From NCBI GenBank assembly GCA_964612895.1, contig CAZTFL010000001.1:265043-329042 (forward strand): DNA of 64,000 nucleotides. Reading direction: 5' to 3'. The position numbers and the translations under genes were made by a program. Below are positions 7,725 through 31,815 of the stretch, in pieces. Every line of letters begins with the position of its first letter. The stretch's first letter is position 1. The notes under the pieces were generated by a model. The model made no database searches. It was not told where the DNA came from and worked only from the letters and a program-made list of their open reading frames with translations. This DNA comes from Candidatus Woesearchaeota archaeon (GTDB lineage Archaea > Nanobdellota > Nanobdellia > Pacearchaeales > GW2011-AR1).

Positions 7725-9052
7725 AGAAATTTCTTTTTTGGGTGGTTGTTTTTTTATTACCACTAACAACCGCCCTTAATTGTCAAGAATTAAATAAAGA
7801 GTATCAAGAAATTTGTTTTAAAATTAAAAGTCTTAATTTATCTCAAGAATATGAGACTAGTCTAATTTTAGATATGATTAATAATTGGAGATTAAAACCA
7901 AATCATGAATTTGTTAATAATTGGAATTCGGGTTTAAAATTAAATAATTCTCCTTATAACAGAGGGGTTGGAGCAGAGTATATCCAAGATGCTTGGTTTA
8001 ATATTTTAACGATAAGTCCTTCTGTTAAAGAAGATAATATTCTATATGTTCCTAATAAAGCAAAAATTTTCTCTGCGTATAATTATCAAATATCCCATCC
8101 AACTAAACTTTATCCAGGAGATTGTAAAACCGAATATAAATTAGTTGAAAATACATCAACATTAGAAATTTATGCTAATAATGAATTAATTGGAAATGAT
8201 AAGATTACATCTTTTGAAATAACAGATAAATTAGATAATATCACTTTTGTAGGAATACTTTCTATAAGAGTAAGATATCAAGTAATTAGATATAGATTAG
8301 TGAATAGTGTTTGTACATTTTATCGTGATACAGATTATACAGGTGAATCTACTGTTAGAAATGATGTTTTAATTGTAAGATTGTATAATAATAATTTAAA
8401 TTTTGATTTGAATCTTACCCCACAATATAATCAAACGATTCAAGGGGAATTAATCTCAAATAATTATACAGCTATTAATTTATTCTTTGGAGATTCATAT
8501 TATCAAAAAACAAAGTATCAATATTATTATGAATTTGAATCAGGAAATGTTTTATCAATTAAAGCAAAAAAAGACGAAAAAATTAATTATTCACAAATTA
8601 TTGTGAACTCTTTTTTAAACAAAGTTATTTTTAAAGTTAGTCAACCTTCAGAATGTGAAATTAGAATTTATGATCACTTTAATTTTAATTCTAAACATTG
8701 TGAACTTAATTTTTTAGAAGAAGAAATTAATATAATAATAGATAATAAAACTCATTTTAAAGAAAATGAAACAATAAAAATAGAGATTATTCCTAGAGAT
8801 GTTTATGTTAATGTTACTTATGGAAATAAAAAATTTATAGTTAAAGATAAAATTTATTTGAATGCAATTCCAGGTCAAAATGAGATTATAATAGAATTTG
8901 ATAATAAAACCATAAGGAAAATAATAACTGTCTTTGATTCATCCAAACTAAAAACTATAAGAAATATATTCCTTATTTTAGGTTTGACTTTTGTTATTTA
9001 TATTATCCTAAAGAAATTTTATATTTCATTAAATTCAAATGAGCGAATGTAG
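7721..9052 (+). CDS. Surface/exported protein with N-terminal signal peptide and C-terminal TM anchor. Part of the transfer module.
   Basis: N-terminal FLFWVVVFLLPLTTALNC. C-terminal IFLILGLTFVIYIILKKF. The start overlaps the upstream gene by 4 nt (ATGA), and the end overlaps the downstream gene. Confidence 0.4.
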   Translation: MKKFLFWVVVFLLPLTTALNCQELNKEYQEICFKIKSLNLSQEYETSLILDMINNWRLKPNHEFVNNWNSGLKLNNSPYNRGVGAEYIQDAWFNILTISPSVKEDNILYVPNKAKIFSAYNYQISHPTKLYPGDCKTEYKLVENTSTLEIYANNELIGNDKITSFEITDKLDNITFVGILSIRVRYQVIRYRLVNSVCTFYRDTDYTGESTVRNDVLIVRLYNNNLNFDLNLTPQYNQTIQGELISNNYTAINLFFGDSYYQKTKYQYYYEFESGNVLSIKAKKDEKINYSQIIVNSFLNKVIFKVSQPSECEIRIYDHFNFNSKHCELNFLEEEINIIIDNKTHFKENETIKIEIIPRDVYVNVTYGNKKFIVKDKIYLNAIPGQNEIIIEFDNKTIRKIITVFDSSKLKTIRNIFLILGLTFVIYIILKKFYISLNSNERM

Positions 9053-9860
9053 TATTTCAAACTTAGGCTCTTGTATTATGGAAAGTTTTTCTAATTTTCT
9101 TATTGATCTATTAAATTTACCTATAAAACCTTTATTAGAAGGAATTAGAAATTTACTTATTCAACCTGTTAATATTAATCTTTTCTTAGAAATTTGGTCT
9201 ATAATAATTTATATTTTATCTTTATTTTATGGTCTTTTATTATTATTCATTGGATTTCAATTTATTGTTTCAGGCTCATCGCCAGAGAAAAGAGAAAATA
9301 GTAAGACAAATCTTGCTAATATTGTCATAATGATGGTTCTTATTCAAGCTAGTTTTTTATTGTATGAATTAGTTCTAGAAATTGTCTCATCTCTTACACT
9401 TACAATTTTTAGTTTAATCCCTTCTGATTTCTTTTTAATGATAAATAATAACTTAATTGGTTTAGAATTACAAATAGTTTTATTGATTCCTTATATTATG
9501 ACTTTAGTATTAACATTAATTTTATTATCTTTGAGATATATTTTGGTAGGGATTGGTGTTATTTTATTAGCTATTGGAATTTTTTTATATTTCTTAGAAC
9601 CATTAAAGAATTATGGTAAATTAATATTAAATTTCTTAGGAGTTCTAATTGTCTTACCCTTCTTTTATTCAATTATTTTATTAGCATCATCTAAATTTTT
9701 AGAAGTTAATATATTTTCTAATCTAAAAATTTTAGTTATGATTGGTGGTTTTAGTCTACTAAATGTTTCCAGTCTTACTTTAATATTATTTGTTATAATC
9801 AAATCAGCTCTTGCTGTTAAAACCCCAATTAAAGAAATAAAAAGCACATTTTCTAATTAA
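9039..9860 (+). CDS. Polytopic membrane protein (VirB6/CedA-like)
   Basis: About 6-7 hydrophobic helices. The N-terminal SGSSPEKRENSKTNLANIV motif is paralogous to the pilin-like protein. It is tightly packed with the flanking genes. Confidence 0.45.
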   Translation: MSECSISNLGSCIMESFSNFLIDLLNLPIKPLLEGIRNLLIQPVNINLFLEIWSIIIYILSLFYGLLLLFIGFQFIVSGSSPEKRENSKTNLANIVIMMVLIQASFLLYELVLEIVSSLTLTIFSLIPSDFFLMINNNLIGLELQIVLLIPYIMTLVLTLILLSLRYILVGIGVILLAIGIFLYFLEPLKNYGKLILNFLGVLIVLPFFYSIILLASSKFLEVNIFSNLKILVMIGGFSLLNVSSLTLILFVIIKSALAVKTPIKEIKSTFSN

Positions 9861-9861
9861 A

Positions 9862-12771
9862 ATGTACGAAATACCTCAACAATTAGAATATAAAGAAAGA
9901 ATTATTTTTGGTCTTACCTTTTCTCAATTAATCTATGCTTTTTTATTTTCATTTATTATTCTTTTAATTTTTAAAACAAATTTAACTCTTTTTATTAAAG
10001 TTTTATTATTTTGTTTTATTGTAATAATTGCTTCGGGTTTTATGTTTTTTAATTTATCAATATATCTTAAAAATTGGTATACTTGGTATAGATCACAATA
10101 TCTTGAGGGTTTTAAACTAAAAAATGAATTAGAAATTGGAGAAATAAAAGATAATTTAATTTATCATAAAAATAAAAAAATTGCTATTTTAAATGTAGAA
10201 TCAATTAATTTTTCTATTAAATCACAAAAAGAACAAGAAGCTATAATATTATCTTTTCAAAAATTATTAAATTCTATTGATTTTCCAATTCAAATTTTAA
10301 TGACTACTGAAACTTTAGATTTAAGTGATTATTTAGATGGTTTAAAAAACAAAATGTCTAAACACGAAAGAATCTTTGAATCATATCAAAATCATATCAA
10401 AGATATTATATCTAAAAATTCTGCAATGAATCGTAATTTTTATTTAATTATTCCTGAAATATTAGATATTAATGTTCAATTAAAATTATGTGAAGAAAGG
10501 TTACATAGTTTAAATTTGAGAACTTATAGATTAAAAGATAATCAGTTAAAACAAGTCTTTTCTAAAATTTTTGATAGTAATGGAGAATTACCAAATAAAA
10601 TATTAAACAATCCTGAATATCTTAAGATTGATAATAAATATCATAAAATTATTTATGCACATGGTTATCCGAGGTCTGTAGAAAAAGGATTTTTAGATAA
10701 ATTAATAAGTTGTTCTGGTAATTTTAATTTCTCTTTACATATTAATCCTCAAACAATTGAATATACATTATTAACTTTAAATAGAGAATTACAAAAACAA
10801 AGAGCTGATTTATACTCAGCTCAAATAAAAAACCAGTTTAATCCTAGTTTAGAAATTAAATATAAAGATACTAGGTTTGTACTTGAAAATTTACAAAAAG
10901 GTTCAGAAAAATTGTTTAATCTTGGATTTTATATTGATTGTAAAGCTAATAGTTTAGGAGAATTAAAATTATTATCAAGGAAAATAGAATCTGAATTAAA
11001 TTCTTTATTAATAATTCCAAAAGATTCAAGATATAGAATGATAGCAGGATTAAAATCTTGTTTACCTTTTGGTAAAGACTTTTTAAATATTAATAGAAAT
11101 ATTACAACATCAGCATTATCAGCTTTTTTTCCTTTCACTTCTTCATTTTTTAAATTTGATAAAACTGGAATTTGGCTTGGTTTAAATAAGAATAATATTC
11201 CTTTAATTAGAGATATTTTTAAGTTATCTAATTCTAATGGAATGTGTTTAGCAAGTTCAGGTGCTGGTAAAAGTTATATGACTAAATTGTTTATTACTAG
11301 ACACTTATTGAATGGTACAAAAGTGATTGTAATAGACCCACAAGGTGAATATAAGAATTTAATTAATAAATTTCAAGGACAAAGAATTGATCTTTCAAGA
11401 GAATCTAAAACAATAATAAATCCTTTAGACTTAATGGGCCATGATTATACTGAAAAAAGATTAGCTTTAGTTGATTTAATGCCTGTAATGTTAGGACAAT
11501 TAACAGAACCACAAAAATCTTTTATTGATCAAGCCTTAACAGAAGCTTACGAAAAAAAAGGAATTTATATGAATGATAATAAAAGTTGGAATAATGAACC
11601 TCCGATTTTAGGCGATGTATTAAATGTTTTAGAAAGAATGGAGAAAAAGGCCAGTAGTCTAGAGAAAAACACCTTACGAAGCCTTACAAACCGTTTAAAA
11701 TTATATGTTACAGGGGTATTCTCTTTTCTAAATAAGCATACAAATATTAATTTTAATAATGATTTTGTTTGTTTTGATATTGGTAATATGCCTAAACAAG
11801 TTAAACCAACTATAATGTTTCTTGTTTTAGATTATGTTTATATGAAAATGAAAAAAGACATTCAAAGAAAATTGTTGGTTATTGATGAATCTTGGTCTTT
11901 ATTATCTAGAACTGAAGAGTCTTCTTATATTTTTGAAATTGTTAAAACTTGTCGTAAGTTTAACATGGGTTTATTTTTAATTAATCAAGAAGTAGAAGGA
12001 ATGTTAAATTCTGAGGCTGGTAGATCTGCTCTTGCTAATTCTTCTTATACTATTTTGTTAAGACAAAAACCAGCAGTAATCGAGAGTATACAAAGAATTT
12101 TTAATTTGAGTAATGTTGAAAGAGTAACCCTTTTAACTGCTGGAATTGGAGAAGGTATACTTCTAATAGAAGATGAACATTCTGAGATTAAAATTGTTGC
12201 ATCAAGTGAAGAACATAAACAAATAACTACAAATGCTGATGAATTATTAGAAGAAAAAATCACTGAAGAAATAATAGTTTCAAGAGATATTAATATTAAT
12301 GTTGATTGTGATGTTTTAGTTCATAAGAAGAGTAAGTTATCTATTGAAGAACAAGAATATCTTATTAAAAAAGGATTTAAAGAAGAATTATTAAAGAGTA
12401 TTTCTTGTGAAACAAAAGAAAGATTCTTTGTTAAACCTAGATTTAATGAGAGTATTAATCATTTATTTGCAATATATGATATTAAAGATTATTTAGAAGA
12501 AAAAGGAATTAAAGTTGAAATCTTTGCAACTAAAAAACCTGATATTGTTTTTGAATTTAAAGGTAAAAAGCATGCAATAGAAGTTGAAACTGGTTCAATG
12601 TTAAAAGTAAAAAAAGTTTTTAATGAAAAAGTAGATAATCTTAACAAAAATTATGATAAATGGTTCTTTGTAGTGACTAATTGGAACAAAATCCCGAAAT
12701 ATAAAAATTATGGAAAAACATGGGATTATCGTTTTGTTCGAGGACAATTAGACAAACTTTTAAAAAATTAA
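9862..12771 (+). CDS. VirB4/TrbE/CedB-like conjugation-type ATPase with N-terminal TM segments and a C-terminal Hjc/restriction-endonuclease-like PD-(D/E)xK domain
   Basis: Walker A: GMCLASSGAGKSYMTKL. VirB4-type Walker B: KLLVIDESWSLL. N-terminal hydrophobic helices. The C-terminal stretch resembles the Hjc core. Confidence 0.65.
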   Translation: MYEIPQQLEYKERIIFGLTFSQLIYAFLFSFIILLIFKTNLTLFIKVLLFCFIVIIASGFMFFNLSIYLKNWYTWYRSQYLEGFKLKNELEIGEIKDNLIYHKNKKIAILNVESINFSIKSQKEQEAIILSFQKLLNSIDFPIQILMTTETLDLSDYLDGLKNKMSKHERIFESYQNHIKDIISKNSAMNRNFYLIIPEILDINVQLKLCEERLHSLNLRTYRLKDNQLKQVFSKIFDSNGELPNKILNNPEYLKIDNKYHKIIYAHGYPRSVEKGFLDKLISCSGNFNFSLHINPQTIEYTLLTLNRELQKQRADLYSAQIKNQFNPSLEIKYKDTRFVLENLQKGSEKLFNLGFYIDCKANSLGELKLLSRKIESELNSLLIIPKDSRYRMIAGLKSCLPFGKDFLNINRNITTSALSAFFPFTSSFFKFDKTGIWLGLNKNNIPLIRDIFKLSNSNGMCLASSGAGKSYMTKLFITRHLLNGTKVIVIDPQGEYKNLINKFQGQRIDLSRESKTIINPLDLMGHDYTEKRLALVDLMPVMLGQLTEPQKSFIDQALTEAYEKKGIYMNDNKSWNNEPPILGDVLNVLERMEKKASSLEKNTLRSLTNRLKLYVTGVFSFLNKHTNINFNNDFVCFDIGNMPKQVKPTIMFLVLDYVYMKMKKDIQRKLLVIDESWSLLSRTEESSYIFEIVKTCRKFNMGLFLINQEVEGMLNSEAGRSALANSSYTILLRQKPAVIESIQRIFNLSNVERVTLLTAGIGEGILLIEDEHSEIKIVASSEEHKQITTNADELLEEKITEEIIVSRDININVDCDVLVHKKSKLSIEEQEYLIKKGFKEELLKSISCETKERFFVKPRFNESINHLFAIYDIKDYLEEKGIKVEIFATKKPDIVFEFKGKKHAIEVETGSMLKVKKVFNEKVDNLNKNYDKWFFVVTNWNKIPKYKNYGKTWDYRFVRGQLDKLLKN

Positions 12772-14619: not shown

Positions 14620-15522
14620 TTAGCTAAATCTTGTTTTTATTGAATTCACAACGGCATCGATTTGCTCTTGATTAAGGAAGTCTGGTTGTAAATCTCTGAT
14701 AAAATCATGAGTTATCCAATTAGCACCATAACACTCTCTTGAATATTCTTTCATTAAATTAAATCTCCAACATTCTTTTTCTGCTCCTAAAACATGCCCC
14801 AATTCATGAGCTAAAACCCAACCAGACATTGAATTATTTAATGTAACTATTGCAAGATTACCCTTACCACATATATGTGCCATCCCTTTTGTTGAACCAT
14901 TAAATTCTAATAGAATTAATTTTATTGTTTTCTCATCTTGATAATTAGTAAGATTAAACAATTCTTCGATGATTGTGCAATTCTGGGTAAAAATTAATTT
15001 AGTATAATTTTCTTCTAATGTTCGATTTATCTTTATTGGATCTAAAATTGAAAAAGTAATATTATACCAAGAATAAATTTCTTGGGCTTTTGAAAAATTC
15101 TCGTTAGGATAAAGATAAAACTGATTTTCAAATAAATATGGTTGAATATTAAAACTCAGGGGTTCATTGTTTAAGCCTTGCTTTTCTAATGGGAAATAAA
15201 AACTCAAAAGAAAAATAAAAAATAACATAAGCATAATTACAATGTAAAGCAGAATATATTTTATTACATCTAGTCTATATTGATGTTTTTTATCAACAAG
15301 ATTATAAAATTTTTTTATCTTTCTAGTTGAATAAATCAATACTCCCAGATAAAGTAAAGGGATTGTAAGAAATACCAAAATTGAGGTTAATCCTTGAAAG
15401 AATGGAGCTATTGCGAAAGTAAATGTCCATATTGAAGCTAGAGTTACAATTAATGTAAAGATCATCATAATTATGTAAGCTAATAAAATTTTTACGGGGG
15501 GATATTTTTGGTAGAATTGCAT
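14620..15522 (-). CDS. Membrane-anchored zinc metallopeptidase (HExxH, metzincin/archaemetzincin-like)
   Basis: N-terminal multi-TM region. C-terminal catalytic motif is AHELGHVLGAEKEC, i.e. HExxHxxG with a nearby Cys. Confidence 0.5.
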   Translation of the reverse strand: MQFYQKYPPVKILLAYIIMMIFTLIVTLASIWTFTFAIAPFFQGLTSILVFLTIPLLYLGVLIYSTRKIKKFYNLVDKKHQYRLDVIKYILLYIVIMLMLFFIFLLSFYFPLEKQGLNNEPLSFNIQPYLFENQFYLYPNENFSKAQEIYSWYNITFSILDPIKINRTLEENYTKLIFTQNCTIIEELFNLTNYQDEKTIKLILLEFNGSTKGMAHICGKGNLAIVTLNNSMSGWVLAHELGHVLGAEKECWRFNLMKEYSRECYGANWITHDFIRDLQPDFLNQEQIDAVVNSIKTRFS

Positions 15523-15966
15523 TTATTTTTCTTCCTCCTTTTTTGGAAAAAATTTCTCAGGTAACATTCTTACTTGTTTAAACATTTTTGACGAATTAAT
15601 GTCTTCATAAAAATGATGTATATACCCTATTAAATTTCTATCAAAGTCAGAGAAATTATTAAGGTAGTATTCAAAAGCTGTATCAGTATCTCCTAATGTA
15701 ACAGAGAACTGTTTTCTTAGATTGAAATAACTATTAAAGATTAAATCTAAAAAACTAAAAAAGAGGTTATCTTTTATTTGTGTTGATATTTCAGTATCCA
15801 TCTTAGATTGATTAATAGTTTCGTTTGCATTACAAAAGAAATTTATAAGTGTGGAAGTAATTATTCTCTTCTTAGTATCATCTTCTTTAGAAAAATCAAT
15901 CTCAAACTTATTCTCTCCATAAATTATTTCTTCTTTGATTAAACTCTCATAACTTTCATTTACCAA
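15523..15966 (-). CDS. Hypothetical protein. The stop abuts the downstream metallopeptidase gene.
   Basis: 147 aa with no motif recognised. There is zero intergenic distance to 14620-15522, which implies co-transcription. Confidence 0.35.
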   Translation of the reverse strand: MVNESYESLIKEEIIYGENKFEIDFSKEDDTKKRIITSTLINFFCNANETINQSKMDTEISTQIKDNLFFSFLDLIFNSYFNLRKQFSVTLGDTDTAFEYYLNNFSDFDRNLIGYIHHFYEDINSSKMFKQVRMLPEKFFPKKEEEK

Positions 15967-16076: not shown

Positions 16077-17906
16077 TTATTTAATAACCGGATAAAAACC
16101 TATCCTTCCAGAGATATTATTTCCAGTAAAATGTATATGATTTAATTCATCCCTGTCTTTAGAAGGCTGTTTATTATCTAAGATAATCACTTGAACATTG
16201 TTTTCAATACAGAACTGGGATATAGACTCAAAAAAATCTTCTTGAATAGTTTCAGACTTAAGATCTTCGGGTTTGATTGTGTCTTTCTCTTTATAGGTTG
16301 TTAAGGGAGAATCAATAACTATAAATCGTGGGTGAGGTTTATCGTTTTTTAAACAATATCTAAGTAGCCCCAACATAAATGCAGCTAGATATATTGCCCT
16401 ATAACCCTTTCCATGATTTCTTCTTTCATCCCCATTGATAATAATATCATTTTTATTTGGATCAAATAAAACTTCTTTCACGCCTAACTTCCAAGAGTTC
16501 AGGAAATATTTGACGTCTTCAACAAAAGTATCATAGACTTCTTTTTCTAAGATTCTTTCTTCGCCCTTAACATTTCTTGTTTGTAATTTATTTTGGTAAT
16601 ATAAAATATCCTGATTTATCTTAGCAACCTCTTCTTTCAATAAGTCCAGTTGTATTGTTTGATCCTTTATCTTTAAAAAATCTTTTAATTGATTTTCATT
16701 TATTTGTTTTACGGGGGCAATACTGTTTTTTATTTTTATATTAATTTTATCAAAAGAGACTTTTATCAATTCATGGTTTTTGAGCACTTCTTCTTTTTCA
16801 TTTTTCAAATTAATTAATACTTCAGAGAGTTCTTTCTTTTTTATCAAGATTTTATCAGCTTCTTTTTGAATAGATTCCATAAAAGCATTGTCTAGTTTTG
16901 AAACATCGGCTCCGAATATTTTACCACATACGGGGCAGTTTTTATCCGCCAATTGATCAATTAATTGACCGCCTTCATTAATAAAATCTAATCGTTTAAG
17001 ATCGCTATCATAGTGTTTATCAAGTAAAATAAATTTTCTTTCAAGGTTATCTAATTGGTTTATTTTACTCCTTATAACATCAATTTCCTTCCAAATTTTT
17101 TGTCTTTTTTCCTCTTCAATAAAAAGCTCTTTCTGATTTTCGTTTAAAATAGATGTCAACTCTTCTATCTTTAAATTGATAGAATCTACCTTAATCTCTT
17201 TTAACCTATTATCTAAATTAAAAATAATCTTCTCTTTTTCGGATAATTCTTCTTTAAGCAATTCTATTTTGGAGTTTACTCTAATCTTAAATGTTTTAAT
17301 AGGTTCGATAGTTTCAAGTTCATCATCATCTCTCCCAGATAAAAGTAGTTTAAATAAAGAGGTCTCCATAGTTTTCTCAGTATACTGCCCGGTGTAAATA
17401 GGAGAACTCTCTGAAATTACCTCCTCTTCATTAACTAAGCATATTTTTCTTAAATTTCTAAAACTAATTTCTTGTTTTTCATTAGAATCATTTTTCTTAA
17501 GTTGACATCCCTTTAGATTTATTAAATTCAATAAAAAACCAGATATATTCTCTTCCCTACTACTCCCTTTTTTAGCTTTTAATTCTTTTGAAGCTATTTT
17601 ACCATATTCTTCTACTGAACCTTCAATGAATTCTATTTTAGAATCAAACAAATCTCGAATAATAGTATACTCTTTACCCTCATAGGTTACTAAATTTAAC
17701 AACATCTTTTCATATCCTGTAGATTCTTGTATTGGTTTTGGTTTAGACTGGGCTCCAAGCATAAAGTCCATACACTGAAAAATATATGACTTGCCTGTGT
17801 TAGATGGACCCGAGATTACATTTAGAGAATTGTCTAACTTTATTATGGTTGGCTCTTTGTCTTTTCCGATAACTCTTAATTCTTTAAAATAAAATCCTTT
17901 ATACAT
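16077..17906 (-). CDS. SMC/Rad50-like ABC ATPase, Lamassu LmuB / ABC-3C ATPase-like (DUF3732-like)
   Basis: N-terminal LNVISGPSNTGKSYIFQCMDFMLG matches Walker A of the SMC/RecF type. A long coiled-coil middle carries CPVCGK, which is Zn-hook-like. C-terminal PRFIVIDSPLTTYKE is Walker B-like. The protein is 609 aa. Confidence 0.55.
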   Translation of the reverse strand: MYKGFYFKELRVIGKDKEPTIIKLDNSLNVISGPSNTGKSYIFQCMDFMLGAQSKPKPIQESTGYEKMLLNLVTYEGKEYTIIRDLFDSKIEFIEGSVEEYGKIASKELKAKKGSSREENISGFLLNLINLKGCQLKKNDSNEKQEISFRNLRKICLVNEEEVISESSPIYTGQYTEKTMETSLFKLLLSGRDDDELETIEPIKTFKIRVNSKIELLKEELSEKEKIIFNLDNRLKEIKVDSINLKIEELTSILNENQKELFIEEEKRQKIWKEIDVIRSKINQLDNLERKFILLDKHYDSDLKRLDFINEGGQLIDQLADKNCPVCGKIFGADVSKLDNAFMESIQKEADKILIKKKELSEVLINLKNEKEEVLKNHELIKVSFDKINIKIKNSIAPVKQINENQLKDFLKIKDQTIQLDLLKEEVAKINQDILYYQNKLQTRNVKGEERILEKEVYDTFVEDVKYFLNSWKLGVKEVLFDPNKNDIIINGDERRNHGKGYRAIYLAAFMLGLLRYCLKNDKPHPRFIVIDSPLTTYKEKDTIKPEDLKSETIQEDFFESISQFCIENNVQVIILDNKQPSKDRDELNHIHFTGNNISGRIGFYPVIK

Positions 17907-18368
17907 TTAAATTACCTGAGAAAACTCTTCCCCCCATTTAGTTAAATTACTATTGATAAATTTAGATATTTTTATATCATTTTCTTTTCCAAAATAATCG
18001 CATATCCATTTAGCTGTTTCATCAATATTCCTCGAATAATCGCTTTCAAAATAACTAAGGAAATTCAAAGTATCTTTATTTTTAGAATAGTAAACACCAT
18101 TTGTTTTATATTTAACAGAAATTACTCCTTTTGAAAGGAGTGTCTGGATAGCTTCTTTGTAATTTTCTCTGAGAACAATTATTTCACAAGATCTATTAGG
18201 CAAATCAGGATGTAAACTACTTGGACCTCCAGAAATATCTGAAGAATGAAGCATTAAATAATTGTAATAAAGAATTCTTTGAAGATCTAAATCTTTATTG
18301 GAATGTTTTAGTAAAAATAGAAGCCTGATAGCTAATTCTACCCTTCCATTAAAAATTACTTCTTCCAT
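17907..18368 (-). CDS. Small middle component (LmuC / ABC-3C MC-like)
   Basis: 153-aa ORF sandwiched between the effector and the ATPase. It overlaps the effector by 13 nt and abuts the ATPase. The gene order matches three-component Lamassu/ABC-3C systems. Confidence 0.4.
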   Translation of the reverse strand: MEEVIFNGRVELAIRLLFLLKHSNKDLDLQRILYYNYLMLHSSDISGGPSSLHPDLPNRSCEIIVLRENYKEAIQTLLSKGVISVKYKTNGVYYSKNKDTLNFLSYFESDYSRNIDETAKWICDYFGKENDIKISKFINSNLTKWGEEFSQVI

Positions 18369-19423
18369 TTTATCTCCAATTTTTCATTAGCTAAATGATG
18401 ACAAATTCCCTTTTTATCAGAATTAGAAGCTTGACTAGAAACCAGGGTCGGTCTTATTTGAACAAGAGAAGAATGACTTAAAACCTTTTTTAATCTTTCA
18501 AATCCATTTTGGCAATCTTCTCTAATTTTTTCTAACACTCCTTCATAGATATCGTTTTTTAATGAGTTAAACTGCTCCATCTCCGGATCTATATCTCTTG
18601 AGAACTGTTCAAGAGATTCTGCTTCATAAAAATAAGCTCTTTGTTCCTCAAAATCTTTTTTTAAATCGCTGTTTTTATCCAGTTCTGAGGAAGAAAAAGC
18701 ATCTTTTCCAAGATAATCTGCATAAGCATCAAGTATCTTTTTTATATAAACTGCCTCGCTATTCATAATTTCTTCAGGAGGTCTTTTTGATATTGGACGA
18801 GGTTTAGATAATATTCCAAAGTGGTATGAAAAACATGGCGTCTCTTTGTATTGTTCAATAAAGTCCTTTATATCTAAAAGTTTAAACACTGAAAAATCAA
18901 ACGATTCTAAATAACTTTTTAGTTCATCTGTCAATGGAATACCTGATGTACTTATAGATTTACAACAAGAATTGTCCCAGTTAGAAATCAACTCTTTTTT
19001 GAGATTTTCTTTTGAGTTCAAAATATCCCATGCATTTGGAGTGACTCCCTTTGGAGAAAATATATAATTTTCTTTTGGAGGCGTTATACTTCCTTGTTTG
19101 CAATAATAACAAATTTTCCCAACTTCAATCAAAATCTCTTTTTTTGATAATTTCTTAGCATATTTCTTACATTGATAATTTATCCAGGTTCCATCATTTT
19201 CATAAACACCAATATCTCGTCCCTTATCTCCTGGACCCCCTATCCTAATCACTTTCACATCTTTATTTTGTTTCTTCTTAAATAAATAAAAAGCCCATTG
19301 TTCAATAATTCGTTCAAACTCTTCGTCACCAACTATCTCTAAAAATTTTATTGGATCCAAAGAGTTTGATCTAAGGATTATTCCGCCTTGAGGCATTACC
19401 GGTTCAACAAGGTCGTTTATCAT
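18356..19423 (-). CDS. Effector with N-terminal Mrr-like PD-(D/E)xK restriction-endonuclease domain (LmuA / ABC-3C effector-like)
   Basis: The segment VIRIGGPGDKGRDIGVYENDGTWINYQCKKY fits a D ... E-x-D ... QCK arrangement typical of Mrr-type REase cores. It is first in a three-gene operon. Confidence 0.5.
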   Translation of the reverse strand: MINDLVEPVMPQGGIILRSNSLDPIKFLEIVGDEEFERIIEQWAFYLFKKKQNKDVKVIRIGGPGDKGRDIGVYENDGTWINYQCKKYAKKLSKKEILIEVGKICYYCKQGSITPPKENYIFSPKGVTPNAWDILNSKENLKKELISNWDNSCCKSISTSGIPLTDELKSYLESFDFSVFKLLDIKDFIEQYKETPCFSYHFGILSKPRPISKRPPEEIMNSEAVYIKKILDAYADYLGKDAFSSSELDKNSDLKKDFEEQRAYFYEAESLEQFSRDIDPEMEQFNSLKNDIYEGVLEKIREDCQNGFERLKKVLSHSSLVQIRPTLVSSQASNSDKKGICHHLANEKLEIKWKK

Positions 19424-19535
19424 AATTTTCTAAAGAAACCCTTATTTTAAAAGATTCGCATTATTTTGAGAAGCAAATAATACAGGAGTAATACGGATTA
19501 AATAACTTTTTAAAAATCAGACTCATTAATTAATT

Positions 19536-21023
19536 ATGGTGGAAAAAATAACCCTTTCAGAGATGGAATCATACCTTTGGGGTGCTGCCAATATCTTAAG
19601 GGGACCTGTTGATGCTTCAGATTTTAAGGCCTATATTTTTCCCCTACTTTTTTTTAAGCGTATTTCAGATATTTATGATGAAGAATATGAAGATGCTCTA
19701 GAAGAATCGGGAGGAGATGAAGAATATGCCTCTTTTCCTGAGCAACATGATTATATAATTCCTAGTGGAGCTCATTGGAAGGATGTGAGAGAAAAAACTA
19801 CCAACGTTGGAGAAGCAATTCAATATTCCTTTAGAGAAATTGAGAAGGCAAATCCAGATCAACTTTATGGTATTTTTGGAGATGTTAATTGGACCAATAA
19901 AGAAAGATTGCCTGATGAACTTTTGATTAACTTAGTAGAACATTTTTCAAGCAAAACCTTATCTAAGAAAAATGCAGAGCATGACCTTTTAGGACAAGCA
20001 TATGAATTTTTAATTAAAAAATTTGCAGATTTAACTAACCGAAAAGCAGGTGAGTTCTATACTCCAAGGACAATAGTTCATTTAATGGGTTCAATATTAA
20101 AGCCCAAAGAAACAGATAGTATTTACGATCCTGCATGCGGTTCGGGAGGTATGCTTTTAGAGGCATATCATTATGTTAAGGAAAGAAATGGGGACTTTAG
20201 AACATTAAGGATTTATGGGCAAGAAAAGAATTTGACTACTTCTGCAATAGCTCGGATAAACTTATTTTTACATGGAATGAAGGATTTTCAAATCATTAGA
20301 GGAGATACTTTAAGAAATCCTGCTTTTAGAGAGGGGGATAGACTAGCTCAGTTTGATGTAGTAATCGCTAATCCGCCATTTTCTTTAAAGAATTGGGGAT
20401 ACGAAAATTGGGCACAAGATCCTTTTGGCAGAAATTTTGCAGGAGTTCCGCCAGAGAGCTATGGTGATTTTGCATGGGTTCAGCATATGGTAAAATCAAT
20501 GGCCCATCCAAACGGTAGGATGGCAGTTATTCTTCCGCATGGGGCTTTGTTTAGAAGTGGGGCTGAGGCAAGAATTAGAAAAGAATTGATTGATAATGAT
20601 TTAGTTGAGACAATTATTGGATTAGGACCAAACTTATTTTATGGGACTGGAATAAGTGCATGCATTTTAGTTTTGAAACTAAACAAAGAGAAAAATAAAA
20701 AGAATAAAATTTATTTTATCGATGCTTCTAATCAATATCAAAAAGGCAGAAATCAAAATTATTTTTTAGAAGAACATACAAATAATGTTTTATCATGGTA
20801 TGAATCTTATAAAGATAAAGAAAATATCAGCCGTGTTGTCGATGCTTCAGAAATTGCCGAGAATGATTATAATCTCAACTTACTTAGATATATAAAAAAG
20901 ATAGATGAAGAAGATAGGGTTAGTTTAGAGCAAGTCTATAAATCTCTTTTAGATGAAGAAGATAAATTCAATAAATCACAAAAAGAAATGAGTAAAATTT
21001 TGGAGAAATATAATTTAATATGA
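19536..21023 (+). CDS. hsdM: Type I restriction-modification methyltransferase subunit HsdM (copy 1)
   Basis: The HsdM N-domain reads LWGAANILRG. SAM motif I is DPACGSGGML. Catalytic motif is VVIANPPFSLKNW (NPPF). The protein is 495 aa. Confidence 0.85.
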   Translation: MVEKITLSEMESYLWGAANILRGPVDASDFKAYIFPLLFFKRISDIYDEEYEDALEESGGDEEYASFPEQHDYIIPSGAHWKDVREKTTNVGEAIQYSFREIEKANPDQLYGIFGDVNWTNKERLPDELLINLVEHFSSKTLSKKNAEHDLLGQAYEFLIKKFADLTNRKAGEFYTPRTIVHLMGSILKPKETDSIYDPACGSGGMLLEAYHYVKERNGDFRTLRIYGQEKNLTTSAIARINLFLHGMKDFQIIRGDTLRNPAFREGDRLAQFDVVIANPPFSLKNWGYENWAQDPFGRNFAGVPPESYGDFAWVQHMVKSMAHPNGRMAVILPHGALFRSGAEARIRKELIDNDLVETIIGLGPNLFYGTGISACILVLKLNKEKNKKNKIYFIDASNQYQKGRNQNYFLEEHTNNVLSWYESYKDKENISRVVDASEIAENDYNLNLLRYIKKIDEEDRVSLEQVYKSLLDEEDKFNKSQKEMSKILEKYNLI

Positions 21024-22543
21024 GCAAAGCAAAACAAGAGATAGTCGAAGGAGCAATAAGTCAGCAAGAATTAGAGGGATATCTTTGGGGTGCTGCGAAT
21101 TTACTTAGAGGAGTAATTGATCCAGGAGATTATAAAAGCGTTATTTTTCCATTAATGTTCTTTAAAAGAATATCTGATGTGTATGATGAAGAATATGAAG
21201 ATGCATTGAAAGAGTCCGATGGCGATGAAGATTATGCAAACTATCCCGAACAGCATGAATTCCAAATACCAAAAAACTCTCATTGGAAGGATGTAAGAGA
21301 AGTCAGCAAGGATGTAGGAAAGGCAATTAAAAATGCAATGGACAATATTGAAAAATCTAATCAAGACAAATTAATGGGCATTTTTGGAGATACTAATTGG
21401 ACCAACAAAGACAGATTAAGTGACTCAATTCTTACAAGTTTAATAGAGCACTTTTCAACTTTAAATCTCACAATAAAAAACGTTCCTCAAGATGAATTTG
21501 GAACTGCATATGAATTCTTGATTAAGAAGTTTGCGGATGATAGCGGACATACTGCTGCAGAATTTTATACTAATAGAACAGTTGTTAAGATATTAGCTAT
21601 GATTTTAGATCCAAAGCCAGGCGAATCTATTTACGACCCTACTTGCGGTTCAGGAGGAATGTTGCTTAATTCTGCCTTGTTAGTTAAAGAAAAGGGAGAG
21701 GAATATAGAAACTTAAAATTATATGGGCAGGAAATAAATATGATCACCTCAGGTATTGCGAGGATGAATATGTTTATTCATGGCTTTAATGATTTTCATG
21801 TTGCAAGAGGAGATACATTAAGAGACCCTGCTTTTGTTGAAAATGATCAATTAAAAAAGTTTGATATTGTTATCGCCAATCCGCCTTATTCAATTAGCAA
21901 ATGGAATCAAGAAGCGTGGAAACATGATCCTTGGGGAAGAAATAAATATGGGCTTCCACCAAAAGGCAATGCTGATTATGCTTTCTTTCAGCACATAATT
22001 TGTTCAATGAAAGATAAGACTGGAAGATGCGGTGTTTTATTTCCTCACGGAATTTTAGAAAGGGATGCAGAGCAGGAAATGAGAAAAAGAATTATTGAAG
22101 AAGATTTAATTGATTGTGTTGTTGGACTTGGAAAAGATTTATTCTATAATTCTTCAATGGAGTCTTGTTTAGTCTTTTGTAAAACTAAAAAAGATCCTGC
22201 GAAAAAGGGAAAGATATTATTTATTGATGCAAGAGATGAACTTACTCGAAAACAAACTCAGAGCTTTTTAGAAAAGCACCATATTGATAAAATCTTCAAA
22301 GCATATAAAGAATACAAAGATGTTGAGGGTTTTGCTAAGATTGTAAGCAATGAGGATGTTTTAAGTAACAATGGAAACCTAAACATTAAATTGTATGTTG
22401 AGAATCATCGACACCTTAACATGGATATTATTACAACTCCATTAAAGAAGTTTGTCGATGATTGGAAAAAAAGCTCTAAAGAACTTGAAGAGTCTACTAA
22501 AGAAATGAATAAAGTTTTGAAGGAGGTAATAAATGGAAAATAA
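21020..22543 (+). CDS. hsdM: Type I restriction-modification methyltransferase subunit HsdM (copy 2, paralogue)
   Basis: Same architecture as copy 1. Motifs are LWGAANLLRG, DPTCGSGGML and IVIANPPYSISKW. It overlaps copy 1 by 4 nt. Confidence 0.85.
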   Translation: MSKAKQEIVEGAISQQELEGYLWGAANLLRGVIDPGDYKSVIFPLMFFKRISDVYDEEYEDALKESDGDEDYANYPEQHEFQIPKNSHWKDVREVSKDVGKAIKNAMDNIEKSNQDKLMGIFGDTNWTNKDRLSDSILTSLIEHFSTLNLTIKNVPQDEFGTAYEFLIKKFADDSGHTAAEFYTNRTVVKILAMILDPKPGESIYDPTCGSGGMLLNSALLVKEKGEEYRNLKLYGQEINMITSGIARMNMFIHGFNDFHVARGDTLRDPAFVENDQLKKFDIVIANPPYSISKWNQEAWKHDPWGRNKYGLPPKGNADYAFFQHIICSMKDKTGRCGVLFPHGILERDAEQEMRKRIIEEDLIDCVVGLGKDLFYNSSMESCLVFCKTKKDPAKKGKILFIDARDELTRKQTQSFLEKHHIDKIFKAYKEYKDVEGFAKIVSNEDVLSNNGNLNIKLYVENHRHLNMDIITTPLKKFVDDWKKSSKELEESTKEMNKVLKEVINGK

Positions 22544-23765
22544 AATTCCTAAGGGTTGGGAAAAAATAAAGCTCGGAGATGTTGTTGAGCATGTAAAAGA
22601 TAAAGTTCATAATCGAGAAGAGTGGACCTTTGATAGATATATTGGAGGAGAACATTTTGAGGAGGGAGAGATAAGAATTACTAAATCTGCACCAATTGAA
22701 GGCAATGAAGGAGTAATCGGCTCTGCGTTTCATATGAGATTTAAGCCAGGACAAGTTCTTTATGTTACAAGAAATCCAAGACTTAGAAAAGGAGGCATGG
22801 TTGATTTTGAGGGAGTTTGTTCTAATGTTACATTCACACTCCAAGCTAATGAAGAAAAACTATCTCAAAAGCTTCTGCCATTTATAATTCAAACAGAGAG
22901 CTTCACAAAACATGCATGCAATAGTGCTCATGGTTCTACAAATCCTTTCTTAAATTGGAAAGACATCGCAAGTTATGATTTATTACTCCCGCCATTAAAC
23001 GAACAAAAAAAGATTGCAGAAGTTTTGTGGGCTGTGGAAGAAGCCATAAAAAATAATGAAGGTGTTATTAAAAAATTTGAATTATTTAGACTTAAAACTA
23101 TGAAAGAAGTCTTAACAAAGGGAATTGGAAAACAAAATTATATTGAATCAGAATTGGGATTAATTCCTAAAGGTTGGAATATTAAAAAGATTTCAGATAT
23201 ATGCAATATTAGAAGGGGGGCTTCTCCAAGACCGATAAATGATAAAAGGTTTTTTTCCAATTCTGGACCGGGCTGGATTAGAATAGCAGATGTAACTCCA
23301 GTATATAAATATCTTAAAAAAACTACACAATATTTATCTGAATTAGGTGCATCAAAGAGTGTTCGGGTTATGAAGGGAGATCTAATTATGAGTATATGTG
23401 CAACAATCGGGAAACCAGTTATAATTGATATGGATGCATGCATACATGACGGCTTTGTATTGTTCTCCGGTATAAAAGAAAAAGAAATTTTAATGGAATA
23501 TTTATTTTATGTGTTACTTTTTAAAGAGAAAGAGTTTTTATCAAATAAACAGGTTGGGACGCAAGGGAACCTAAATACTTCTATTGTGGGAAATATAAAA
23601 TTAGGTATTCCTCCAAGCATAGATGAACAAAAAAAGATTGTAGACGTATTGGTAAAAATTGATAATGGACTTTTTAGCTATAAGGAGAATCTTAAGTCTT
23701 TAAAAGCCCTAAGGCAAAAACTTATGAATGAGCTTTTTTTGGGTAAAATAAGATTGGAGAAATAA
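22533..23765 (+). CDS. hsdS: Type I R-M specificity subunit HsdS
   Basis: 410 aa with two target-recognition-domain halves separated by conserved helical spacers. It overlaps the hsdM2 stop and abuts hsdR. Confidence 0.8.
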   Translation: MENKIPKGWEKIKLGDVVEHVKDKVHNREEWTFDRYIGGEHFEEGEIRITKSAPIEGNEGVIGSAFHMRFKPGQVLYVTRNPRLRKGGMVDFEGVCSNVTFTLQANEEKLSQKLLPFIIQTESFTKHACNSAHGSTNPFLNWKDIASYDLLLPPLNEQKKIAEVLWAVEEAIKNNEGVIKKFELFRLKTMKEVLTKGIGKQNYIESELGLIPKGWNIKKISDICNIRRGASPRPINDKRFFSNSGPGWIRIADVTPVYKYLKKTTQYLSELGASKSVRVMKGDLIMSICATIGKPVIIDMDACIHDGFVLFSGIKEKEILMEYLFYVLLFKEKEFLSNKQVGTQGNLNTSIVGNIKLGIPPSIDEQKKIVDVLVKIDNGLFSYKENLKSLKALRQKLMNELFLGKIRLEK

Positions 23766-23766
23766 A

Positions 23767-26655
23767 ATGTTTAATGAACAAAACACCGTTGAAGATTATG
23801 TAAGAGACCTTTTAGTTAAACACGGTTGGACTTTCGTTCCAAAAGAAAAACTTCCTCGTCAAGAAACAGATGTCTTAGTTGAGAAACAAGTTAGAGATGC
23901 CCTTATTAGATTAAATCCTTCAATTGAAGAAGATCATGATAGAGCGGATGAAGTTTTGTATAAATTAAAAGCCATATTGGTGTCTGCAAGAGGGACAGGG
24001 GTTGTTAAGACTAATGAAGAGTTTACTCGATGGATTAGAAATGAAAAAACCATGCCTTTTGGAGAAAATGGCGAGCACGTATCTATAAAATTAATTGATT
24101 TTGATGACTTAAAAAATAATGAATTTATTGTTACAACACAATATACTTTTATTTCTGGACAGAATAGAAGAGCAGATTTAGTTCTTTTAGTAAATGGAAT
24201 ACCTTTAGTAATCGGAGAATGTAAAACCCCTGTTAGACCTGCAATTTCATGGGTTGATGGGGCGATTCAACTCGAAGAATATCAAAATTCCTTACCTACA
24301 TTATTTGTCCCTAATTTATTCTGCTTTGCTACAGATGGTAAAGAATACAGAGTTGGTTCAATTAAACTACCAATTGAAAAATGGCAACCTTGGAAAAAAA
24401 CAACAGATACGGTTTTTGAGAAATTAACCGAATTAAAAAATTCTGTTGATTTAATGTTAAAACCTGAGATTGTTCTTGATTTATTATTAAACTTTACTTT
24501 ATTTAGCACAGATAAAACTGGACAAAGTATTAAAGTTCTTTGCCGATACCAGCAATATGAAGCTACAAAACAACTTATACAAAGAGTTATTGATGGCAAA
24601 GTTAGAAAAGGATTAATTTGGCATTTTCAAGGTTCAGGAAAATCCTTATTAATGGTTTATGCTGCACAACTTTTAAGAAAAGAACCCAAACTAAAAAGCC
24701 CGACAGTTATTGTTGTCGTAGATAGAATCGATTTAAATTCTCAAATAAGCGGAACATTTAGTGCTTCACAAGTTCCAAATATAGTAGTTGCTGAATCTCG
24801 TGAAGAATTAAAAAAATTATTAAAACAAGATACTAGAAAAATAATTATAACAACAATTCATAAATTTGCAGAGGCTAATGGGATTTTAAACGATCGAGAG
24901 AATATAATTGTTTTAGTTGATGAGGCACATAGAACTCAGGAGGGGGATTTGGGTAAAAATATGAGAGATTCTTTACCAAATGCATTTTTATTTGGATTAA
25001 CAGGAACTCCAATTAATAAGAGGGACAGAAATACTTTCTGGGCTTTTGGAGCTGAGCAAGATAAAAATGGTTATATGAATCGATACTCATTTGAGCAATC
25101 TTTAACAGATAAGGCAACACTTCCGATTTATTTTGAACCTCGACCCGTTGAATTAAGAATTGATAAAAAGGCAATTGATGATGCCTTCGATGAAATAACT
25201 GATGCCCTTTCAGATAATGATAAAGCAGAACTATCTAAACGTGCTGCGAAAATGGGGGCTTTAATTAAATCTAAAGATAGAATTAAGGAAGTTTGTAAAA
25301 ATATGGTAGAACATTACAAAGAATATATTGAGCCTAATAATTTCAAAGGACAAATTGTTGTTTTTGATAGGGATGCGTGTGATTTGTATAAAAAAGAAAT
25401 TGACAAATTATTATCTCCAGAAGAAACTGCAGTAGTTATGACTGTTAATACAAAAGAAACTGAATGGAAAAAGAAATATTTCTTAAGCGACGATGATATG
25501 GAAAAATTGCTTAATAGGTTTAGAGATCCAAAAGATCCTCTTAAATTACTCATCGTTACATCAAAGCTTCTTACTGGTTTTGATGCTCCTATAAATCAAG
25601 TTATGTATTTAGACAAACCAATGAAGGACCACACATTATTGCAAGCAATCTGTAGAGTTAATCGACCATATAATGGAAAAAATAATGGTTTAATTGTAGA
25701 CTATTTAGGAATTTTTGATAATGTTTCTAAATCATTAAATTTTGATATAAAAGATGTTCAAAAAGTAATTTCCAATATTAGTAATCTAAGAGATGAAGTC
25801 CCTAATGCTATAAAAAAATGTTTATCCCATTTTAAGAAAATAGATAGATCTATTGATGGATACGAGGGTCTTTTACTCGCACAGGATTGTTTACCTACAA
25901 ATGAAAAGAAAGATGAATTCGCTGCAGATTATTCTTATTTGAATCGACATTGGGAAGCAGTATCTCCTGATAAGTTCTTGGATAACTATCAGAAAGATTA
26001 CAAATGGTTAACTCAAATTTACGAATCTTTACAGCCTCCAAGTGGAAATGGTCGATTAATCTGGCATACTTTAGGAGCAAAGACAATCGAGCTCATCAAT
26101 AAAAATGTAACTGTTCAAACAATTAGAGATGATTTAGAGCCATTAATCATGGATTCAAGTGTTCTTGGAAGAATTAATGAAAAAGATGCAAGAATAAAAG
26201 CAAAAGAACTTGAGATGCGTATTGTCTGGAATTTACATAAACATGCAGGCGATCCTAGATTTAAGGAGCTTGGTAAGAGATTGGAAGAGTTGAAAGAAAA
26301 ACATTATAAGAATGTAATTAATAGTTTAACCTTCTTAAAAGAACTTTTAGAAATTGCTAAGGAAACCGTTAAGCTTGAAAGAGAAACAGAGGCAGAACCG
26401 ATCGACAGCTCAAGAGAAGCATTAAGTAAACTCTTTTTAGAATGCAAAGTTGAAACTACTCCAAAAATTATAGAAAAAATAGTAGAAGAAATTGATGGGG
26501 TCGTAAAGGTTACGAGATTTGATGGGTGGCAATGGACATTATCTGGAGAAAAAGAAATAAAGATGGCTTTAAGAAGAACCCTTTTGAAATATAAACTTCA
26601 CAAAGAACAAGATTTGTTTGATAAAGCATATGATTACATAAGGGAGCATTATTAA
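23767..26655 (+). CDS. hsdR: Type I R-M restriction subunit HsdR (SF2 helicase/nuclease)
   Basis: Motif I is IWHFQGSGKSLL. The DEAH box is VLVDEAHRTQEG. The N-terminal Res-III-type nuclease region carries DLVLLVNGIPLVIGECK. The protein is 962 aa. Confidence 0.85.
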   Translation: MFNEQNTVEDYVRDLLVKHGWTFVPKEKLPRQETDVLVEKQVRDALIRLNPSIEEDHDRADEVLYKLKAILVSARGTGVVKTNEEFTRWIRNEKTMPFGENGEHVSIKLIDFDDLKNNEFIVTTQYTFISGQNRRADLVLLVNGIPLVIGECKTPVRPAISWVDGAIQLEEYQNSLPTLFVPNLFCFATDGKEYRVGSIKLPIEKWQPWKKTTDTVFEKLTELKNSVDLMLKPEIVLDLLLNFTLFSTDKTGQSIKVLCRYQQYEATKQLIQRVIDGKVRKGLIWHFQGSGKSLLMVYAAQLLRKEPKLKSPTVIVVVDRIDLNSQISGTFSASQVPNIVVAESREELKKLLKQDTRKIIITTIHKFAEANGILNDRENIIVLVDEAHRTQEGDLGKNMRDSLPNAFLFGLTGTPINKRDRNTFWAFGAEQDKNGYMNRYSFEQSLTDKATLPIYFEPRPVELRIDKKAIDDAFDEITDALSDNDKAELSKRAAKMGALIKSKDRIKEVCKNMVEHYKEYIEPNNFKGQIVVFDRDACDLYKKEIDKLLSPEETAVVMTVNTKETEWKKKYFLSDDDMEKLLNRFRDPKDPLKLLIVTSKLLTGFDAPINQVMYLDKPMKDHTLLQAICRVNRPYNGKNNGLIVDYLGIFDNVSKSLNFDIKDVQKVISNISNLRDEVPNAIKKCLSHFKKIDRSIDGYEGLLLAQDCLPTNEKKDEFAADYSYLNRHWEAVSPDKFLDNYQKDYKWLTQIYESLQPPSGNGRLIWHTLGAKTIELINKNVTVQTIRDDLEPLIMDSSVLGRINEKDARIKAKELEMRIVWNLHKHAGDPRFKELGKRLEELKEKHYKNVINSLTFLKELLEIAKETVKLERETEAEPIDSSREALSKLFLECKVETTPKIIEKIVEEIDGVVKVTRFDGWQWTLSGEKEIKMALRRTLLKYKLHKEQDLFDKAYDYIREHY

Positions 26656-27759: not shown

Positions 27760-27819
27760 AATAATAAAACTAATCTTATCTTTAAATAATTTTTTCTATA
27801 CATTTCTTTTTTTAATCTC

Positions 27820-30683: not shown

Positions 30684-30695
30684 ATCTCTTAGTTT

Positions 30696-31664: not shown

Positions 31665-31815
31665 ATTTCTTGACTGAAGTTTACTCCCAAATTACTTAAT
31701 CAAGATAATTTTTATTGGTTTTTGACCTTTTTAAGATTTATGTTCACTACTTTTTTTAAGTAATTTTTAATTTCTTTTTTATTATCTAAATTCTTTTAAA
31801 TAATTCGAAATATTA

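Follow-up and report, generated by a model that had tools for sequence, protein, structure and literature searches.

Three co-directional minus-strand open reading frames (ORFs) at positions 16077-19423 of the window, the 64,000-nucleotide stretch of contig CAZTFL010000001.1 analyzed here, encode proteins of 355, 153, and 609 amino acids (aa). They are the lmuA, lmuC, and lmuB genes of a Lamassu system, whose products are a nuclease effector, a middle component (MC), and a coiled-coil ATPase (Table 1). The start codon ATG of lmuC sits 13 nt within the 3' end of lmuA (…aaATGGAAGAAGTAA), and the ATG of lmuB abuts the lmuC stop codon TAA with a 0-nt gap. An initial annotation had described an effector, middle component, and ATPase operon of the Lamassu or ABC-3C kind with these ORF sizes and junctions, and both the ORF coordinates and the junctions as read in the sequence agree with it.

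Table 1. Coordinates of the Lamassu genes, their domains and motifs, and the adjoining intergenic region (positions in the window; res, residues)
Feature	Position	Strand	Description
lmuA	18356..19423	(-)	effector, 355 aa; N-terminal nuclease and C-terminal ABC-3C docking/oligomerization domain
LmuA nuclease domain, ~res 23-205	18809..19357	(-)	PD-(D/E)xK, Mrr-like; E37, GDKGRD 65-70, Q84-C-K86
LmuA CTD6, res 223-353	18365..18757	(-)	Pfam PF20282, 4.5e-38, model 1-130/130; GICHHLAN res 339-346
lmuC	17907..18368	(-)	middle component, 153 aa (ABC-3C MC2)
lmuB	16077..17906	(-)	Rad50/SMC-like coiled-coil ABC ATPase, 609 aa, 'short' LmuB
LmuB Walker A, GPSNTGKS, res 33-40	17787..17810	(-)	G33, T37, G38, K39 invariant in 24 homologs
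LmuB candidate zinc-hook motif, CPVCGK, res 324-329	16920..16937	(-)	C324, P325, C327 invariant in 24 homologs
LmuB signature-like motif, GKGYRA, res 499-504	16395..16412	(-)	G499, G501 invariant, K500 nearly so in 24 homologs
LmuB deviant Walker B, FIVIDSP, res 528-534	16305..16325	(-)	Ser in place of catalytic Glu; D532-S533-P534 invariant in 24 homologs
Divergent intergenic region, lmuA (-) / hsdM (+)	19424..19535	(.)	112 nt; putative archaeal promoters, tandem motif

All three proteins match the Lamassu models of PADLOC, a search that the initial annotation had proposed, over their full length. The LmuA model PDLC03852 matches the 355-aa protein (6.1e-88), the LmuC model PDLC03871 matches the 153-aa protein (3.6e-40), and the LmuB model PDLC03863 covers residues 5-607 of the 609-aa protein on model positions 3-609 of 610 (8.6e-143). 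In Pfam, LmuA carries the ABC-3C C-terminal domain (CTD) family CTD6, and LmuC matches the middle component family MC2 (PF20288) over its full length (3.1e-40). With profile E-values of the operon proteins ranging from 1e-38 to 1e-143, the operon match lies far beyond chance. Together with the LmuB-like fold described below, these matches bear out the operon type that had been proposed.

LmuB proteins fall into short (~600 aa) and long types, and the short type has a Walker B motif of the form hhhhD[Q/S/T/E] and carries zero to two zinc hooks (PNAS study, PMC12663957). The window operon has the short architecture throughout. LmuA joins an effector domain at its N-terminus to an ABC-3C domain at its C-terminus, LmuC is encoded between lmuA and lmuB, and LmuB is a ~600-aa SMC/Rad50-like ABC ATPase with a split head, an intervening coiled coil, a Gx4GK[S/T] Walker A (GPSNTGKS), and a short-type Walker B (FIVIDS). 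Related loci, taken as the best 80 LmuB-related loci from reference genomes, share the A-C-B order: lmuB follows an MC2-type and an A2-type LmuA gene of its own strand in 74 of 80, and the LmuA match spans both the nuclease and CTD6 in 67 of those 74. The three-gene locus is a typical example of a subtype already catalogued, and common and annotated in bacteria.

The AlphaFold 2 model of LmuB (predicted local distance difference test score, pLDDT, 87.5) comprises an N-terminal head (residues 1-190), two long helices (203-319 and 340-443), and a C-terminal head (455-609). CPVC (residues 324-327) falls in the loop at 320-339 that joins the ascending to the descending helix, which places the CxxC at the predicted apex of the coiled coil, the position on which the initial annotation had wanted it checked. 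CPVCG aligns with CPMCG of the solved Salmonella LmuB (9hqu_A), a CxxC occupies the hook position in 80 of 80 related loci (CPxC in 75), and many LmuB proteins are reported to carry a CPxCG zinc hook (PMC10586767). CPVC is a candidate zinc hook and may join two LmuB subunits. The Walker A, hook, and Walker B motifs quoted earlier (GPSNTGKS, CPVCGK, and FIVIDSP) are all present, with their conservation read from a 24-sequence alignment, and the Walker B reads D-S in 77 of the 80 related loci. GKGYRA precedes Walker B by about 28 residues and aligns with GSGSNW of 9hqu_A; from its position, it is probably the equivalent of the ABC signature.

LmuB is closer to solved LmuB proteins than to Rad50 or SMC. 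In a PDB profile search, its best match is 9hqu_A (4.2e-20, residues 15-547), while SMC and Rad50 heads reach ~1e-3 (Rad50 ~2e-3) in matches restricted to the Walker A region. Foldseek with the LmuB model places five LmuB entries (4e-19 to 7.5e-12) first, including the solved chains 9uxh_F (4e-19), 9hqu_A (2.9e-18), 9nyg_B (2.6e-14), and 9ux7_A (7.5e-12), and Rad50 follows at 2e-11 to 1e-7; SMC, MukB, and JetC also rank below the solved LmuB. The same search ranks PDB 9a6c_A, an integrative model of Bacillus YydD-YydB, between Salmonella and Vibrio LmuB (8.5e-16), which suggests that YydD may be another LmuB-like ABC-3C ATPase.

The AlphaFold model of LmuA (pLDDT 89.5) contains an alpha-beta-beta-beta-alpha-beta PD-(D/E)xK core, with D70 at the start of the second strand and Q84-x-K86 on the third. 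The motifs that the initial annotation quoted are present (GDKGRD at residues 65-70, YEN at 74-76, and YQCKKY at 83-88). Thirty-seven LmuA homologs share E37, G63, G65-D66-K67-G68-R69-D70, Q84-C85-K86, Y88, and K103, of which G63, the GDKGRD residues, and Q84-C85-K86 are invariant or nearly so, along with the GICHHLAN motif of CTD6, in which G339, H342, and N346 are invariant; Pfam CTD6 matches 37 of 37. YEN had been counted as part of the restriction endonuclease core, but it is not conserved among these homologs and was rejected as a catalytic motif. The Mrr catalytic signature is D…(Q/E)xK after a Gly-rich GDxGxD loop, and the MspJI site reads D…QxK. LmuA carries this signature in its conserved G63, GDKGRD, and Q84-C85-K86, and we infer an active site of E37…D70…Q84-x-K86, with D70 as the catalytic Asp. 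In a fold search with the nuclease domain, the closest non-Lamassu match is Cap4, followed by Mrr-like nucleases.

All three genes are under strong purifying selection, as judged against a metagenomic relative (L087) whose LmuB is 84% identical. The ratio of nonsynonymous to synonymous substitution rates (dN/dS) is 0.07 for lmuA and ~0.02 for lmuB, where synonymous sites are near saturation, and lmuC has a proportion of nonsynonymous differences (pN) of 0.12 against a saturated synonymous proportion (pS) of 0.78. We read the operon, with a probability of about 0.88, as a complete and selectively maintained short Lamassu system (LmuACB, also ABC-3C) of the Mrr-nuclease subtype, located in a defense island of a DPANN archaeon. 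Two ORFs downstream of lmuB, at 15523-15966 (147 aa) and 14620-15522 (300 aa), were considered as extra components and rejected; neither matches a PADLOC defense model, and the gene downstream of lmuB is not kept in relatives, differing both in the relative with 84% LmuB identity and in a metagenome-assembled genome (MAG) of Nanoarchaeia.

Lamassu systems have been characterized both genetically and structurally. Millman et al. list Mrr-family endonucleases among the effectors, show that four defense-giving family members depend on the ATPase site, the effector, and lmuC, and demonstrate an abortive-infection phenotype with an E. coli SE15 system that their Methods name Lamassu-Mrr (bioRxiv 10.1101/2022.05.11.491447). 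Mrr effectors occur in both short and long types (PMC12663957). Structural papers describe an LmuA1:LmuB2:LmuC1 complex, a stoichiometry known for the Vibrio and Salmonella systems, in which the effector is sequestered as a monomer, LmuB heads that sense DNA ends and turn over ATP slowly with a naturally deviant Walker B, and a released LmuA that forms a CTD-mediated tetramer with an active nuclease site. In the Salmonella complex, LmuA and LmuC lie near the hook, and defense requires the LmuB zinc hook, ATP binding, and head engagement (bioRxiv 10.1101/2025.03.14.643221).

By analogy with these Cap4-type systems, which have other CTD and MC families, two LmuB subunits would dimerize through the CPVC zinc hook at the tips of their short coiled coils, and LmuC and the CTD6 of one LmuA would bind near that hook, holding the nuclease monomeric and inactive. 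The LmuB heads would bind free DNA ends or replication intermediates of an invading virus or plasmid, and ATP binding and slow hydrolysis coupled to DNA binding would then release LmuA. Slow ATP turnover is expected from the intact Walker A and the deviant D-S Walker B. Freed LmuA would oligomerize through its CTD, assembling the PD-(D/E)xK site (E37, D70, Q84-x-K86), which would cut DNA indiscriminately and abort the infection. What the sequence analysis itself supplies is the genes and their families, the motifs, the predicted folds, the placement of the hook, and the selection. The stoichiometry, the DNA-end trigger, the release and oligomerization of LmuA, and the abortive outcome are all carried over from the solved complexes and are to be taken as predictions for this operon.

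Several results weigh against the reading of the operon as an Mrr-type Lamassu with this mechanism. Every solved Lamassu structure contains a Cap4 effector, and its CTD and MC come from families unlike those here. Sequence searches of the PDB with either LmuA or LmuC, whether a single sequence or a profile was used, returned nothing significant; LmuA is tied to solved LmuA by fold search only. Since the solved structures are of the Cap4 type and none is detectably related by sequence to this LmuA or LmuC, the mechanism is an extrapolation for an Mrr/CTD6/MC2 system. The Pfam model Mrr_cat (PF04471) scores 14.4 bits on LmuA (E=0.043, residues 35-97), short of its gathering threshold of 21 bits. 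It does match 18 of the 37 homologs at E<=0.01 (best 7.6e-07), so LmuA is a divergent Mrr relative and not a formal Pfam member; the Mrr-type label given in the initial annotation stands for the family and the PD-(D/E)xK fold, but not for the Pfam score of the window's own protein. DUF3732, which had been suggested as a check on LmuB, does not match it at E<=1. This domain reaches only E=0.025 on the LmuB of an E. coli relative from the same sub-family, serves neither PADLOC nor the published Lamassu classification as a defining character, and evidently does not cover the window's LmuB clade. E. coli SE15 is not among the 60 listed of 68 matching records, and its Lamassu-Mrr is unconfirmed as a CTD6/MC2 system. 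No published experiments on this operon or on any archaeal Lamassu were found.

A DPANN archaeon of a Nanoarchaeia- or Pacearchaeota-like lineage is the most likely host, in line with the initial suggestion of a DPANN-like archaeon; of the window's genes, it is gyrB whose relatives give this assignment. Named relatives of the window GyrB at 74-80% identity are nearly all labeled 'archaeon', 'Candidatus Nanoarchaeia archaeon', or 'Candidatus Pacearchaeota archaeon', and in an 81% GyrB relative gyrBA adjoins the genes for an eIF2_C-domain protein (aIF2-gamma) and ribosomal protein S6e. Both of these are archaeal/eukaryotic markers. Synteny with this relative is lost outside gyrBA.

LmuB relatives occur in 449 species-representative genomes, and the clade is overwhelmingly bacterial. 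They are also found on 148 plasmids, of which 78 are predicted to be conjugative, and on 55 IMG/VR viral contigs. The closest named LmuB is from a Nanoarchaeia MAG (43%); next come one from a Clostridia MAG at 41% identity and two from Bathyarchaeia MAGs at 38% and 35%. In an unbootstrapped neighbor-joining tree, these four and the window form a sub-clade within the large bacterial radiation, which points to a small LmuB sub-clade apparently enriched in archaeal sequences. NCBI labels the Nanoarchaeia and Bathyarchaeia LmuA homologs 'ABC-three component system protein'. A published survey of complete RefSeq genomes counts just seven archaeal genomes with Lamassu, all of them euryarchaeotal or thaumarchaeotal (PMC12663957). 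The initial annotation had singled out the CxxC and the archaeal occurrence as notable, and both are present; however, the zinc hook, Mrr effectors, the D-S Walker B, and archaeal Lamassu have all been published already.

The operon lies in a defense island. A complete Type I restriction-modification (R-M) system with two HsdM paralogs occupies 19536-26655 and is divergent from lmuA. Its HsdM paralogs are in tandem at 19536-22543 (495 and 507 aa, 49% identical, with a 4-nt overlap), followed by a single HsdS and HsdR, and this HsdM region has the highest guanine-plus-cytosine (GC) content of the window's first half, 0.31-0.34 against ~0.25. The island also includes a PDC-S14 candidate at 5447-6304, a DUF4357 protein that matches the PADLOC PDC-S14 model at 5.4e-49, and its convergent neighbor at 6429-7073, a Type II-like N6/N4 DNA methyltransferase; the two are possibly another defense or R-M-like pair.

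Between lmuA and hsdM, the intergenic region averages 86% identity across three lineages, compared with ~78% in coding DNA, and is a putative promoter/operator region for both genes. A/T-rich TATA-like boxes lie on both of its sides, GCGAATCTTTTAAAATA is found ~20-36 nt upstream of the lmuA ATG, and the central tandem motif TCCGTATTA-CTCCTGTATT at 19479-19497 is unique in the window, with 0.06 occurrences expected by chance. A scan for bacterial promoters and terminators gave counts no higher than in shuffled sequence, and bacterial models are not applicable to an archaeon. The divergent neighbor of lmuA is hsdM in all three lineages, so the Lamassu and Type I R-M systems appear to travel together and are perhaps regulated together.

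A tyrosine integrase gene (1501-2661) lies upstream near a cluster at 7329-12771 that resembles a type IV secretion system (T4SS). One protein of the cluster is TrbC/T4SS-pilin-like, and another is a 969-aa VirB4/TraG/HerA-type ATPase with a PrgI-like N-terminus and ~180 extra C-terminal residues. Together, the integrase and the cluster suggest that this DPANN genome contains an integrative element of a conjugation-like kind.

The foremost rival to host antiviral defense is that the operon mainly serves this mobile element, as an addiction module or by excluding plasmids and rival elements from an integrative, conjugative-like island. The integrase, T4SS-pilin, and VirB4/TraG-like genes upstream fit such a role, as do the plasmids and viral contigs that carry LmuB relatives, the mostly plasmid-borne E. 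coli version described below, and V. cholerae DdmABC, which restricts plasmids as well as phage. On the other side, no att-like direct repeats were found that involve tRNA-Asp, tRNA-Leu, or the integrase-proximal end, island borders were likewise not found, and the linkage to Type I R-M in three lineages is as in ordinary defense islands. The two roles are compatible and would use the same mechanism, and we consider a chiefly mobile-element role possible but unlikely. A broader conjecture is that this Lamassu-Mrr and the divergent Type I R-M form one co-inherited, co-regulated, two-layer cassette, controlled through the 112-nt region with its tandem TCCGTATTA and exchanged among archaea and anaerobic bacteria by an integrative element that bears a T4SS. 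This proposal is speculative, and we hold it to be doubtful.

A bacterial-type cassette, newly acquired by transfer and either silent or inactive in its archaeal host, would fit the overwhelmingly bacterial clade and an operon GC slightly above the local background (0.29 against ~0.26). That GC is nonetheless near the host value and not bacterial-like, and the nearest relatives include archaeal MAGs of Nanoarchaeia and Bathyarchaeia. Catalytic and structural motifs are all intact, dN/dS of 0.02-0.07 persists over a divergence that has saturated synonymous sites, and the upstream region with its TATA-like boxes is conserved in three lineages. A silent cassette is accordingly improbable. Still less probable is that LmuA, served by LmuB as motor or sensor, is a modification-dependent Type IV Mrr-like nuclease selective for modified foreign DNA instead of an indiscriminate abortive nuclease. 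LmuA has no DNA-modification reader domain of the winged-helix or SRA-like kind, its remainder being CTD6, and the tested Lamassu family members act as abortive-infection systems.

That the ATPase is a housekeeping repair protein of the Rad50/SbcC, RecN, or RecF type with unrelated neighbors, as its Rad50 fold, coiled coil, and CxxC hook, its Foldseek matches to Rad50, and one source's name for a relative ('DNA repair ATPase RecN') might suggest, is effectively refuted by profile, fold, and neighborhood evidence: solved LmuB outscore Rad50 by 7-8 orders of magnitude, NCBIfam repair equivalogs are not reached, lmuB is translationally coupled to the CTD6 and MC2 genes, the catalytic Glu is replaced by Ser533 in a protein of just 609 aa, and no Mre11/SbcD gene is adjacent, the neighbors being lmuC and lmuA upstream and the unrelated 147-aa and 300-aa ORFs downstream. 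The initial annotation had named a best match to Rad50/SbcC beside Mre11/SbcD, or to RecN/RecF, as grounds for abandoning the Lamassu assignment; the best matches are instead to LmuB.

Other parts of the window have further features. An 858-aa protein at 2728-5304 contains Laminin_G_3/ConA-like lectin repeats in three copies and probably acts at the cell surface or in adhesion; its gene contains ~640-nt internal DNA repeats at 3946-5288. Between the Type I R-M system and tRNA-Asp (31592-31665) lie a 499-aa DUF2779 protein at 28322-29821 (3.7e-40) and unannotated ORFs at 26701-28338 and 29910-31283, and none of these matches a PADLOC model. Farther along are a 2177-aa minus-strand ORF at 48604-55137 in a region of raised GC (~0.33) and an accessory-looking cluster at 57304-62268. 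The products of this cluster include a Zot-like P-loop protein at 57304-58110, a nucleotidyltransferase at 58135-59046, and one of the Fic/DOC type at 59375-60190. A further product of 247 aa (61525-62268) matches part of the IscB HNH region at 6.2e-08, far below the cut-off.

The new element in these results is an intact Lamassu system under purifying selection in a DPANN archaeon with a small genome, and its novelty is modest. The gain for understanding Lamassu itself is small; the A-C-B order, the Mrr effector, the hook, and the deviant Walker B were already catalogued. However, the Mrr/CTD6 LmuA and the MC2 LmuC have no solved relative detectable by sequence, which makes an archaeal or E. 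coli representative a reasonable target for learning whether sequestration and oligomerization extend beyond Cap4 effectors. Under the two-layer cassette conjecture, an SMC-type abortive (suicidal) system would operate in a small-genome organism, its proteins lying on a contig of 635,481 bp, for which the population logic of altruistic death is puzzling. DPANN archaea are generally episymbionts, and the host is most likely one as well.

The closest known system to the window operon is the type that DefenseFinder calls 'Lamassu-Mrr', the ABC-3C CTD6/MC2 type. It is represented by an E. coli IncF-plasmid operon (WP_072714138, WP_001015823, and WP_001339650) that RefSeq names ABC-three component system protein, ABC-three component system middle component 2, and AAA family ATPase. 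The two operons share gene order and tight junctions, the same best PADLOC sub-models (PDLC03852, PDLC03871, and PDLC03863), the same Pfam families CTD6 and MC2, and similar sizes (366/161/608 aa in E. coli against 355/153/609 aa in the window). Their proteins are ~29-36% identical overall, and the two LmuA proteins show 36% identity across 90% of the length. Of 5,426 complete E. coli genomes, 66 carry the E. coli operon at >=99% identity, and 58 of its 70 places are on plasmids. The E. coli operon is accompanied by insertion sequence (IS) elements, whereas the window operon has a DPANN host, an archaeal-style A/T-rich promoter region, and linkage to Type I R-M.

Salmonella enterica LmuACB (PDB 9HQU/9HQX) has an LmuB ~16% identical to that of the window, with a D-Q Walker B instead of D-S. 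Its effector N-terminal domain, CTD, and MC belong to families unlike those of the window, and neither LmuA nor LmuC has a sequence-level match there. Vibrio cholerae DdmABC, or Lamassu Vc-Cap4 (PDB 9NXX, 9NY1, 9NY5, 9NYG, and 9UXH), resembles the window operon in its A-C-B order, short LmuB, and PD-(D/E)xK-superfamily effector. It is the best-studied mechanistic model, with a 1:2:1 complex, DNA-end sensing, and LmuA tetramerization. DdmABC nevertheless combines a Cap4 nuclease with CTD7 and MC3 and has lost the LmuB zinc hook, whereas the window operon combines an Mrr-like nuclease with CTD6, MC2, and CPVC. The likeness to DdmABC drawn in the initial annotation is thus to a different subtype.

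Rad50-Mre11 and SbcCD resemble LmuB in the ABC head, the antiparallel coiled coil, the apical CxxC hook, and presumed DNA-end recognition, and the structural literature proposes them as the evolutionary source of Lamassu. Unlike Rad50, LmuB has LmuC and LmuA as partners in place of Mre11/SbcD, a much shorter coiled coil, and Ser in place of the Glu that follows Walker B; Rad50/SbcCD serve in repair, while Lamassu serves in defense. The nuclease domains of Mrr-family, Type IV, and Type ISP enzymes (Mrr_cat; AF1548, 1Y88; LlaBIII, 4XQK) are the remaining comparison for LmuA. The nuclease domain of LlaBIII and AF1548 are both Mrr-family, and the window LmuA differs from these enzymes in having CTD6 fused to its nuclease instead of modification-reading or helicase domains.

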